Shown one piece after another: positions 39,001 to 42,000 of a DNA stretch of 64,000 nt (position 1 is its first letter; every line of letters starts with the position of its first letter). This stretch comes from Holophagales bacterium (GTDB taxonomy: Bacteria > Acidobacteriota > Thermoanaerobaculia > Multivoradales > UBA5704). The DNA lies in contig JANNIH010000072.1 of the NCBI GenBank assembly GCA_031404815.1, forward strand, positions 12,100 through 76,099, given 5' to 3'. The position numbers were made by a program.

Positions 39001-42000
39001 TAGGGGCGTGAGTTTGTCATAGGGGGACCACGACCTCCTGGGCCGGTCGCCGACCTGCGGTAGAGTTGCCCGCCATGGACGACAAGGACACGAAGGCGGT
39101 TCTCGCCGTGGTGCAGCGGGCGGTGGCGGCGGCGCCGGGACGCAAGCACGACCTGGAATCCGCGATGGGCATAGGGCATGGCCGGCTCATCGACCTGGTC
39201 AACGGCCAGCTGGAGCTGCGTTCGCGCCATCTGACGGGGCTCGCCCGTTATCTGGAGGTGCCGGCGTCGGACTTTTACCGCCTGGCGCTCGGCGAGGCCG
39301 AACGCACCGCGCGGCGCCGGCTGGAAGAGTGGATCGATCCGCATGCCGCGCCGCCGTTTCTGCGCAGATACACTGAACCGGCGTCATCCGACGACCGCTT
39401 GCGCACCTTGATCCGAGAAGAAATCGCCGCCGCTCTTTCCGCGAAGAGGTAAACGCGCGCGCCGAAGACCGACGCCGCGCCGGAATTCCGGCGCGCGTCC
39501 CAAAATCGCTTCGCGGGTCCCGATTCTTCCGTCAAAGGCCCAAATTCCTCGTGCACGTCCCGAGTTCGAAGAATGCGGCCTGGATTTATCGTTCACGTCC
39601 CGGAGTTACCGATTACGTCCTAGACTTACCGCGTGAGTCCCAGGTTTACCACATGCGGCCCAGATTCACCGTCTGAGTCCCAAACCGAGGAGACGCGTCC
39701 CAGATTTACCAAGGGCCTCCCCATCCCGCCACTGTGGCGGGCTAACCCAAGGAGTCCATCAACAGCCGTCTGAATAAATCTACCGAATGGCGCCAAGCCC
39801 CCTGCATCGCTGAGTTGGCCGCTCGGGCATACTCGCCGTTGGGCCGGGGCCGGAGACGCAGGAAGGGTGGTAAGCCATAGCGCATCGCGATGCAGTTGAC
39901 CCAGAGTCGAGCGGTCCGGCCGTTGCCGTTGGCGAAGGGATGAATGCGGATCCACTCCGCATGAGCCCAGGCGCAAAGCAACAAGATCGCCTCAAGCGCA
40001 TCAGCGGTCGGGTCGCTGCCAGGAGCGACGACGTGATCCAGAGCCGAGAGGCCTTGATGAAGCTTCCGCTCGAACGCGGCCAGCTCGGCTGCTACCTCGG
40101 GCGCCGGAACGCCCAACAGGCCACCGACTCCGACCTCGTAGTCTTCAAGCCCGGCCTCGCCTCGGAACCTTCCGGAGAGGCCCGGTTCCGGAAGGTCCAG
40201 CCCTTTCAGCATTCGGCGCTGCCATTCACGAGCGACCTCTAACGTCAATGGCGTCCGCCGAAGGGCTTCATCTCGGGCTTGGCCGAAAACCTCGGCGAGA
40301 TTCGCGCGCAACCGGTGCGAGTCTTCATCCCAGTCAGGCATCGAGCAGTTCGAGCATTCTCGCCTGCGCGGACCCCCTCTCCGACATGCGAGCTCCCTCT
40401 GCAGGATCCTCCCTCAGGGACGCCTCCGCGTCGATATAATCCGCAATCGCCCGAGCGAACAGGGGATCGCTCTCACGATAGGCGCGCAGCTTCCTGAGGG
40501 TCGCTTCAAGATCCGCCTCGACCTCTCGGCTTCGCCGAAAAACGAAGTCCCGAACCGCTTCGTTGACTAGCTGGTTCAGGGGTTGGCCCAAGACCTTGCT
40601 TAGCTCAACCAGGTGCGCCTGAACCGCAGGATCGAATCTGAAAGTCGTGGCTTTTCTGATCATGCCCTGGACCTTAGGCTTCCCTGGCCGTGATGTCAAT
40701 TGGCCGATTTGACGTCACTCACCCTGTCTGCGAGTTAGACCCAGGCTCTCCCGGCTGGTGGGTTGAGCTTCGAAATCGACGGGAGGTCGTCGAAAATCCC
40801 ATACCTAGGGCGATGCCCTAGGCTTGTTTAGTTTAGGGCGGGCCTTCGGCCCTGACCGCGGGAGCGGGAAACCCTTGGGCACCAATTGGCCCTGCCCGCG
40901 AGAGAGTAGATCAAGACGGCCCGATGACCGATTCCGCCTCGGGACGGGTTATGACGAACAGGTGCTCGGTGCAGGGCTCGCCGCGAAAGACGGCGGTGAC
41001 CGTCTCTCTCCGTTCAAATCCCACTCTCTCCAGCAGGCGTATCGAGGCCCGATTGCGGGTGTCGGTGATCGCGATCACTTGAGCGACCCGGGTGTGCTCG
41101 AACAGCAGGGCCAGCGTTTCGCGCACCGCCTCGGCCGCCAGGCCCCGGCCCTGCCAGGGAGTCGCGAGCGAGAAACCGATTTCGGCAGGCTCACCTTCTC
41201 CGGCGTGCAGGCAGATGCCGATATCGCCCACGAGTTCACCCGTAGAGCGCTCGGCGATGCCGACCTGCAACCACTCCCCCGGCCGGCCGAACGGAGCCGC
41301 GCTCATCTGGGAAAGGAACTCAGTGGCCTCGGTGGACGACATCGGAGACCAATCCTGGTATCGACCGACTTCCGGGTCAGAGCGGTACGCCTGAAAAACT
41401 TCGAGGTCGGCGCAGGTGAGCCGGCGCAGGACGACCCGCGAAGCTACACGGGGCAGGGGATCGAGGGCGGTCATGGCCGGTTTTCGGCGGTCACGAGGCG
41501 CGATGCGGCCGCTCGGGAGCGCAACCTTCGGCAGAGCGGCGAGAGCAGGGCACCTCCCTCACGGCGCGAGCACCCGCAGCTTCTCGGGCGAGATCGACAG
41601 AGTCAGCTCGCGGCAGCCCCCGAAAGCATCGCCGTCGATCTGGGCGCAGGTTCCGGGGGGAAGGGTGATCCGGATCTCCCCTTCGGCGGGCACGATGCGG
41701 ACATCGTGGCGACGGACGTGCAGGCCCAGGGTGAGCGCGAGGGCGAAGGCGAGGGTCGCCGCCCGGCCCTTACCGTTGAACAGGACCAGCTCCAGCCGGC
41801 CGTCGTCGTGGCGGGCGGCTGGGGCGATTTGGAAGCCGCCGCCGTAGAGATCGATGTTGCAGGCGGCGACGAGGGAGGCGGTGTAGCGTTGCCCCGCGGC
41901 TTCGACTTCGATCTCGGGATACGCGTAGCGCCACCAGGCGGCGAGCCCTTGGAGGCCAATGCCGAGACGGCCCAATCTGCGTTTCCAGCGCGGATTCAGG

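Follow-up and report, generated by a model that had tools for sequence, protein, structure and literature searches.

A small XRE-type protein gene and a phased 20-bp direct-repeat array recur as a pair on Acidobacteriota chromosomes

The repeat array and the gene upstream of it

We analyzed a 64-kb stretch of DNA from a Holophagales bacterium (GenBank assembly GCA_031404815.1, contig JANNIH010000072.1, positions 12,100 to 76,099), referred to here as the window, in which a gene coding for a 125-residue helix-turn-helix (HTH) protein of the Cro/C1 (XRE) type is followed on the same strand by an array of 20-bp direct repeats (Table 1). A preliminary description of this DNA reported eleven contiguous units between convergent genes, and both the count and the phase are confirmed; the interval assigned to the array at that time (39075–39741) also takes in the upstream gene. 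The units are arranged head to tail, are each exactly 20 bp long, and have the consensus GTCCCAGATTTACCGTGTGC (short form GTCCCAGATTTACCG+5). G1, C3 and C4 are identical in all eleven units, the conserved positions overall being GTCCC (positions 1–5), T10, A12 and C14, while positions 16–19 are free. Individual units match the consensus at 10–17 of the 20 positions.

Phasing of the array by chance is excluded, because the run of 11 GKCCY cores is seen only at a lag of 20 on the + strand, other lags between 15 and 25 give runs of 2 or fewer, and the longest run in 200 Markov-simulated 64-kb windows is 3. The lag-20 autocorrelation at the array is 0.555 (z = 7.7), and the best value elsewhere in the window is 0.385. 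Lag 40 equals lag 20 in strength, indicating a two-unit super-period within the array. Tandem Repeats Finder (TRF) detects only the best 4.3 copies (39597–39682), and the exact 14-mer core proposed in the preliminary description is present in just one of the eleven units (39697–39710), with five units matching it at two or fewer mismatches. A twelfth, degenerate unit leads the array in phase; its GTCC core is gone and it contains the palindrome GCGCCGGAATTCCGGCGC, and the stretch aligned with it in the closest relative (locus L131) is a regular GTCTC unit. No copies of the motif above chance were found elsewhere in the 64-kb window. The G+C content is 56% for the array and 66.5% for the window.

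The spacing of 20 bp is relevant to the geometry of the array. At 10.5 bp per turn, successive cores drift by −34° per unit and pass through about one full turn over 10.5 units; the earlier proposal that every core lies on the same face of the DNA is true only at 10.0 bp per turn. A coding repeat was considered and rejected, because 20 is not divisible by three and the open reading frames (ORFs) that cross the array have only 41 and 46 codons for amino acids.

The protein encoded upstream of the array has no Pfam match of its own, and comparison with its relatives shows that the HTH-like protein noted previously is a genuine XRE-type HTH. Among 45 diverse family members, 39 match HTH_26, 34 match HTH_3 and 30 match HTH_31, a profile search of PDB sequences places ClgR and lambda cI on top, and an AlphaFold2 model built with a 43-sequence alignment has a predicted local distance difference test score of 83.5, with values above 90 in the core. 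The five-helix HTH fold and the profile match together place the protein in the Cro/C1 (XRE) class. An N-terminal helix is followed by an HTH core (approximately residues 24–72), a linker modeled with low confidence and, at residues 105–123, a conserved C-terminal helix; GHGRL lies in the predicted recognition helix, and His52, which is invariant in the family, lies within ELRVRHL (ELR.RH52L). A word-indexed search with this protein recovered only six close clusters, and an exhaustive profile search with the family recovered 94 clusters among 1.84 billion representatives, nearly all of them 100–150 residues long; the closest relatives are in metagenome-assembled genomes (MAGs) of Thermoanaerobaculia. 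Together with an Acido-Lenti-1 small RNA (Table 1), these relatives assign the window to Acidobacteriota. No model matching the family was found in NCBIfam or PADLOC. We conclude that the protein belongs to the XRE fold class and to a small unnamed family of Thermoanaerobaculia and Acidobacteriota with its own signature (ELRVRH52L plus the C-terminal helix). A module consisting of such a gene and an array was not described in the literature that we searched.

The start of the gene has an unusual organization that is shared by its relatives. In all 15 family loci compared (the window, L001, L003, L004, L006, L008, L075, L116, L121, L123, L131, L132, L134, L137 and L139) a TAGAGT, TAAGGT or TCTAAT box is located 7–9 nt 5′ of the start codon, and there is no Shine-Dalgarno sequence. 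Because a −10-like box directly precedes the ATG and a Shine-Dalgarno sequence is missing, this pattern suggests that the mRNA of the HTH gene is leaderless and that this property is conserved across the family. The putative box in the window was not called by a generic sigma-70 promoter scan. Nucleotide homology between the window and L001 begins at 39031 even though the upstream neighbor of L001 differs, and the putative promoter therefore travels with the HTH gene.

A GC-rich hairpin directly after the HTH stop codon separates the gene from the array. It is one of only three helices, and the most clearly conserved feature, recovered by RNAalifold from six orthologous regions, in which its nine pairs are mostly retained and one pair is changed on both sides; stable hairpins are predicted 3′ of the stop codon in other clades as well, in predictions made without a shuffled control. 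The hairpin may be the 3′ end of the mRNA or a terminator placed before the array. It bears on the idea that the array acts as RNA, either as a 3′ untranslated region or as a small RNA, in which GUCCC motifs (+ strand) or GGGAC/GGA motifs (− strand) would act as a sponge for an RNA-binding protein or regulate the HTH mRNA. The constant orientation of the array relative to the gene and its proximity to the stop codon make co-transcription conceivable, and on the − strand a GGA-containing motif would recur at 20-nt intervals, in a manner reminiscent of CsrB-type sponges. Sponges of the CsrB/RsmZ type present GGA in the hairpin loops of a structured RNA, but over the array we observe no Rfam match even at E ≤ 1, no folding better than that of shuffled sequences (z = −1.59 and +0.09 for the two strands) and no conserved structure, RNAalifold leaving most of the array (from about 39545 onwards) unpaired with zero covariation. 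An exact spacing at the helical repeat (20 or 21 bp) moreover characterizes duplex DNA rather than RNA motifs, the fold encoded by the partner gene is a DNA-binding one, and the hairpin may end the transcript before the array is reached. We consider a role as RNA to be quite unlikely.

Gene and array in relatives

Loci for comparison were picked by way of the protein, comprising the contexts of every close homologue and nine further relatives from a protein-anchored metagenome scan, and are therefore unbiased with respect to arrays. A same-strand, phased 20-bp array is present 3′ of the gene in 13 of 13 independent loci with enough downstream DNA, that is, in the window and in all 12 relatives, whose arrays might by the preliminary description have proved absent. 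The arrays contain 8–20 units and start 2–172 bp past the stop codon. No periodic signal in the whole 1–12 kb locus (lags 7–45) is stronger than that of the array in 11 of the 12 relatives, and in the twelfth the array ranks third. Gene and array thus recur as a pair across Acidobacteriota chromosomes and are strictly co-inherited.

The genes flanking this pair differ from locus to locus. An acetyl-CoA synthetase gene lies upstream in both the window and L006, with a Fic gene downstream in the window and a different gene in L006; the pair lies between a ParE-like toxin-antitoxin (TA) pair and a GNAT gene in L001, between a peptidase S8 gene and a hypothetical gene in L003, and between a DUF1517 gene and a hypothetical gene in L004. 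The window and L001 share nucleotide homology over nothing more than the promoter, the gene and the DNA leading to the first unit of the array (window 39031–39486). The GTCC(C) core is near-universal among the arrays, being weakened or altered only in L135 and L138, and the remainder of the unit is clade-specific and changes with the protein clade. The window's clade has GTCCCAGATTTACC, other clades have GTCCCGTATTCYGG, GTCCCAGGACGGGAAC, GTCCCCGAATNTCC or GTCCTGA, and the variant GGTCCGAAAAT has a length of 21 bp. Two paralogous modules with different units occur inside single MAGs (L003 with L116, and L005 with L121).

A pattern scan of one genome per species extends the pairing further. At least 120 loci match the pattern; those listed are mostly unrelated, near-perfect variable-number tandem repeats (VNTRs), which were filtered out, and the numbers of arrays per genome are lower bounds. 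Among the matches listed are the Acidobacteriota modules L116, L121, L075, L062 and L123, which have distant family genes (33–50% identity). The pairing of gene and array persists to about 30–40% protein identity, in spite of changed units and changed neighbors.

In the window, the HTH gene is preceded further upstream by the gene for the acetyl-CoA synthetase, which is of the ADP-forming type, and the array is followed by a convergent Fic gene, an antitoxin-like gene that overlaps it, and then GNAT, DAGK and RuvB genes. The Fic protein has the motif HPFANGNGRTAR and weak PADLOC matches to PDC-S04/SoFic. The convergent arrangement is as first described. The hairpin that abuts the Fic stop codon is probably the 3′ end of the Fic operon and not part of the array. 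At 86% identity, L131 matches the window from the synthetase gene across the HTH gene and over most of the array, after which the alignment jumps to the antitoxin region; most of Fic is gone and the upstream antitoxin-like gene is kept (window 39742–40699 compared with L131 4618–5182). Because the body of Fic is missing in L131, we do not regard Fic as part of the module. Fic was also rejected as a partner of the array, since it is not beside the array in any other locus and is partly deleted in L131, and the adjacency to a Fic/Doc module that was highlighted initially is incidental. From this alignment the Fic TA pair looks as though it is decaying or was recently inserted.

In at least six independent contexts (raw count), TA genes are located no more than a few kb from the module. 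The families are Fic, ParE-like, PemK, PIN_12, Phd/YefM, UPF0175, SocA/Panacea, BrnA and DUF5615/DUF433, and the coordinates are window 39742–40699, L001 5403–5854, L003 11297–11931, L004 8847–9904, L075 4632–5571, L131 5173–7812 and L139 5029–6553. This clustering may reflect a common preference for variable regions, or a functional link.

Table 1. Positions of the features discussed, in the window unless another locus is named.
Feature	Position	Strand	Remarks
Promoter-like −10 box TAGAGT	39061–39066	+	8 nt before the ATG; no Shine-Dalgarno sequence
Gene for 125-aa Cro/C1 (XRE)-type HTH protein	39075–39452	+	Pfam, PDB-profile and AlphaFold2 evidence
GC-rich hairpin	39454–39479	+	Directly after the HTH stop codon, between gene and array; no U-tract
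Degenerate twelfth (leading) unit GCGCCGGAATTCCGGCGCGC	39477–39496	+	In phase; 13/20 to consensus by manual alignment
20-bp direct-repeat array, 11 contiguous units	39497–39716	+	Sequence and statistics; conserved 3′ of homologues
Perfect hairpin CCCGCCACTGTGGCGGG	39725–39741		Abuts the Fic stop codon (39742–39744, − strand)
Fic gene	39742–40341	−	PF02661; convergent with the array
Antitoxin-like gene	40334–40699		Overlaps the Fic gene
Overlapping 15-bp tandem repeats	21973–22054		TRF; matches of up to 100%; period of 15 bp compatible with a reading frame
Acido-Lenti-1 small RNA	28220–28265		Rfam; 40 bits, gathering threshold 37
21/42-bp array, distant subfamily	L140 2916–3170		
21/42-bp array, distant subfamily	L142 3113–3386		
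21/42-bp array, distant subfamily	L143 3128–3380		

The genes immediately past the arrays are informative about a possible operator function, in which the HTH protein would repress or activate the promoter of the gene just beyond the far end of the array. A GNAT gene starts 3 bp past the array in L138 and 64 bp past it in L137; GNAT as a conserved third component was rejected, because the array-adjoining GNATs are not orthologous. Three Acidobacteriota genomes have a tandem form with the order paralogue a, array, paralogue b, in which the recognition helix is LPxGGW in paralogue a and LRNGSL in paralogue b; the a copies are 60–81% identical among themselves and the b copies 58–76%. Paralogue b has no array of its own, and its −10 box is about 20 bp past the last unit, such that the last units overlap its promoter. 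An operator role is plausible for this tandem form. As an explanation of the arrays in general it is unlikely, since in the window, L001 and L003 the following gene converges on the array, leaving no promoter to control and making such a role impossible there, the downstream genes are unrelated between loci, and 11–17 sites far exceed the needs of an operator.

Some arrays have no family gene close by. One of these, in L034, is a whole-array paralogue of that in L075, which is located on the same chromosome (OY969112.1); unit order is kept and identity is 68% over 200 bp. Chromosome OY970373.1 (7.7 Mb) has at least five dispersed, near-identical arrays (TTGTCCCCGAATNTCCMRAA) at L067, L071, L078, L110 and L123, with family genes beside only one of the at least five arrays listed. 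The orientations of the arrays listed on this chromosome alternate, which speaks against a fixed polarity and disfavors a replication-polar barrier. One orphan array, in L077, is directly 3′ of a 329-residue ORF (L077 3719–4708) that by eye resembles an Rpn/YhgA-type PD-(D/E)XK transposase-like protein. In an Acidobacteriota MAG, a 32-unit array with 94% identity between 20-bp units (CCGTCCTCCGATTGATCCGC; L013 1642–2281) has no family gene upstream and could represent a recent expansion or else an unrelated VNTR.

A distant subfamily of the HTH proteins (about 25% identity) has no array 3′ of the HTH gene. At the same locus there is instead a 21/42-bp array after a divergently transcribed, uncharacterized gene encoding 146–153 residues that has no Pfam match (Table 1), together with a conserved convergent TPR_12-like gene of about 445 residues, and these may constitute a related three-gene system. 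A group II intron reverse transcriptase gene (RVT_1 and GIIM; L142 5330–6625) is situated about 900 bp downstream of the distant family gene in L142.

Constraint on the array and comparison with known systems

We compared divergence within the array with that of the adjacent synthetase gene, for which fourfold-degenerate sites differ by 0.25–0.29 between the window and L131, L006 and L007. Divergence in the array is 0.03 at G1 and C3, 0.05 at C4 and 0.20–0.25 at T10, A12 and C14, and reaches 0.45–0.66 at the spacer positions 16–19, a value that is probably inflated by the ambiguous alignment of repeats between orthologues. Pooled unit profiles of two clades (49 and 47 units) have high information at positions 1–5 and T10 and clade-specific positions near 11–14, and non-uniformity across the unit positions gives p = 5e-12 and 1e-22 for the two clades, with the reservation that the pooled units are not independent. 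The contrast between a conserved core and degenerate 3′ positions, as described previously, thus becomes clear once the units of relatives are pooled, but it is not significant in the window's 11 units alone (P = 0.27). Orthologous arrays differ by insertions and deletions of whole 20-bp units, and the phase is kept. A core and a phase that stay fixed while the spacers vary freely are the pattern that would be expected of a protein-binding array under selection, and slippage alone does not yield it.

These comparisons also bear on the simpler interpretation that the array is a minisatellite, a non-functional VNTR generated by replication slippage and carried along beside the gene. Whole-unit insertions and deletions and 40-bp super-repeats are typical products of slippage, near-perfect 20-bp VNTRs are common in many unrelated genomes among the matches listed, and the window units by themselves are without significant position bias. 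We nonetheless regard a minisatellite as very doubtful: the units are old and diverged and yet none is out of phase, the core has diverged by 3–5% while the spacers are saturated, and the gene stays with its array at low protein identity, with other units and other neighbors. Slippage homogenizes whole units and cannot alone conserve selected positions within them.

The preliminary description raised the possibility that the array is a relic of a plasmid partition or replication site, and we considered a plasmid-type partition centromere or iteron origin in both states, still active or left over from an integrated plasmid. The phased 20-bp direct repeats are of a size found among iterons and in the parC repeats of pSK41 (PMC9426499), and they adjoin a gene for a small DNA-binding protein in a TA-rich region. 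But the contigs carrying the module, which might have included plasmids, are chromosomal, are up to 7.7 Mb in length and contain housekeeping genes, and searches of 72,556 plasmids and 50,697 phages (tblastn and blastn) gave no match to either the protein or the array, nor did a scan of viral contigs with the protein. An ORF with the ParA Walker-A motif KGGxGK[ST] is present in 0 of 15 module loci, no ParM, TubZ, ParB or Rep was found among the neighbors (precomputed Pfam matches for the window, L001–L009 and L139–L144), and DnaA boxes are at chance level, the nearest being 2 kb from the array and inside a gene. There is no AT-rich segment and no skew switch, the protein is neither a ribbon-helix-helix (RHH) ParR nor a winged-helix Rep, and a relic would not be expected to stay under constraint across the family. 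A plasmid-type site, whether active or relic, is therefore extremely unlikely.

Nevertheless, the anatomy of the array is that of iterons or centromeres, as was initially recognized, and yet it fits no known family. ParR binds direct-repeat arrays cooperatively and wraps the DNA into a solenoid, the segrosome, and the pSK41 repeats are 20 bp long; parC is usually located upstream of parM, where it doubles as the operon promoter region, and ParR-parC families have diverged into pairs that do not cross-react (PMC9426499). The module resembles the ParR-parC systems of R1, pB171 and pSK41 in that a gene for a small DNA-binding protein adjoins a direct-repeat array, a similarity of position in which binding here would have to be presumed, and the non-cross-reacting pairs resemble the paralogous modules with different units in one genome. 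It differs in that ParR is an RHH protein whereas the window protein is an XRE HTH, and in that the array is 3′ of its own gene, with no motif in the promoter, whereas parC is usually 5′ of parM. Furthermore, there is no ParM, the neighbors being acetyl-CoA synthetase, Fic, GNAT, DAGK and RuvB genes, the location is chromosomal and not plasmid-borne, the arrays have 8–20 units compared with 2–10, and orphan arrays exist. As to ParABS, no Walker-A ParA ORF is present in the 15 loci and no ParB domain was seen among the neighbors.

Iteron arrays and control loci such as P1 incA and F incC have direct repeats of 17–22 bp with helical phasing and a conserved core with variable flanks, and the control arrays are found downstream of the gene for the protein that they bind and act by titration. 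The 11 phased units of exactly 20 bp fall within this size range. In contrast to iteron systems, there is no Rep (about 300 residues with two winged-helix domains) at the locus, and no DnaA boxes, AT-rich DNA unwinding element or plasmid context; the adjoining protein has 125 residues and a single HTH.

Among regulators, a parallel in site geometry is seen with a MerR-like protein. BldC of Streptomyces (68 residues) is reported to bind direct repeats in variable number, cooperatively and head to tail (PMC5859096). BldC and the window protein are both very small HTH-type proteins without a classical dimerization domain, and the array has the same direct-repeat geometry; BldC differs in being MerR-like and not XRE, and its sites are short runs in regulon promoters and not arrays of 8–20 units at its own gene. 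XRE/Cro-C1 regulators such as ClgR, DdrO, the C-proteins of restriction-modification systems and HigA antitoxins act as dimers on a single palindromic operator, or a few of them, preceding the genes under their control. We know of no XRE/Cro-C1 regulator with a long phased direct-repeat array after its own gene. A type II TA system of the HigA type is not indicated, since no conserved partner gene is found across the loci and Fic, which is convergent, comes with an upstream antitoxin-like gene of its own and is absent from relatives. The array is likewise not a CRISPR (clustered regularly interspaced short palindromic repeats) locus, in agreement with the preliminary description: CRISPR repeats measure 23–50 bp and alternate with unique spacers, usually near cas genes, but the units here are contiguous without separate spacers, and no cas domain is present among the neighbors.

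A putative docking site for the HTH protein

We favor, with moderate confidence, the interpretation that gene and array form a two-part module in which the array would be a dedicated cooperative docking site for its own XRE-type HTH protein. We hold this view because the protein-anchored loci all carry the array, their flanks differ, the GTCC core is constrained, and the protein has a DNA-binding HTH. The suggestion of a cooperative regulator-binding platform in the preliminary description is the one that the comparative evidence favors, as gene and array are co-inherited in all the relatives. Binding of the protein to the array, and the stoichiometry, cooperativity and solenoid geometry of the complex, are what we infer from these comparisons.

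The following sequence of events can be proposed. The protein would be made from the promoter just 5′ of the ATG, probably from a leaderless mRNA, and its HTH would recognize the GTCC(C) core of each unit; a second, clade-specific block one helical turn further on (T10, A12 and C13–14 in the window's clade) may also be read. Protomers would then be aligned head to tail with one binding register per 20 bp, and the flexible linker and conserved C-terminal helix could either bridge adjacent protomers or recruit a partner. A DNA-binding domain followed by a linker and a short conserved C-terminal helix is a layout that resembles centromere-binding adaptors. Cooperative binding would coat about 220 bp, and because 20 bp is slightly under two turns of B-DNA, the 11 units might trace about one left-handed superhelical turn, giving a solenoid like that of ParR on parC. 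The coated array could be a high-avidity, sequence-specific nucleoprotein landmark or sink, located on the chromosome and without a motor or a replication initiator. In the cell it could serve as a local barrier or switch for transcription, as a titration buffer or as a chromosome landmark.

Several observations weigh against this interpretation. The link between protein and array is based on co-location and co-inheritance, and the statistics are qualified by the non-independence of pooled units, the ambiguous alignment of repeats and the insignificant contrast in the window's own units, noted above. XRE HTH proteins usually bind palindromes as dimers, whereas the array units lack dyad symmetry; none was seen on inspection inside the units of the window's clade. 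The orphan arrays show that an array can persist or spread by itself, as selfish or slippage-driven DNA would. Neither is there a conserved GTCCC in the promoter regions of family genes, leaving classical autoregulation through the array motif unsupported, nor was a conserved partner or output gene found across the module loci.

A more far-reaching version of the docking-site interpretation is that the module is a motor-less, chromosomal segrosome-like system, in which the XRE adaptor would polymerize on about one superhelical turn of repeats and its C-terminal helix would recruit an unlinked partner, and in which arrays, including the orphans, would mark or anchor loci or form programmable barriers to transcription or replication. 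We think this unlikely as it stands, but if true, it would amount to a bacterial chromosome landmark of a new class, in which protein-array pairs that are orthogonal to each other share a genome.

The tempting reading of this locus as a plasmid relic beside a toxin is not upheld, and its description is corrected accordingly. If the protein does coat the array, the module would be a compact natural protein-DNA pair with high-avidity, tunable binding (8–20 sites) and several orthogonal versions per genome. It would also be a useful model of how HTH proteins occupy direct repeats cooperatively, and might serve as a tool for tagging loci or for building roadblocks. It would further mean that arrays in the style of centromeres and iterons are not limited to plasmids and origins, but are used also on the chromosomes of Acidobacteriota, including Thermoanaerobaculia, a phylum that has received little study, by an unnamed protein family.

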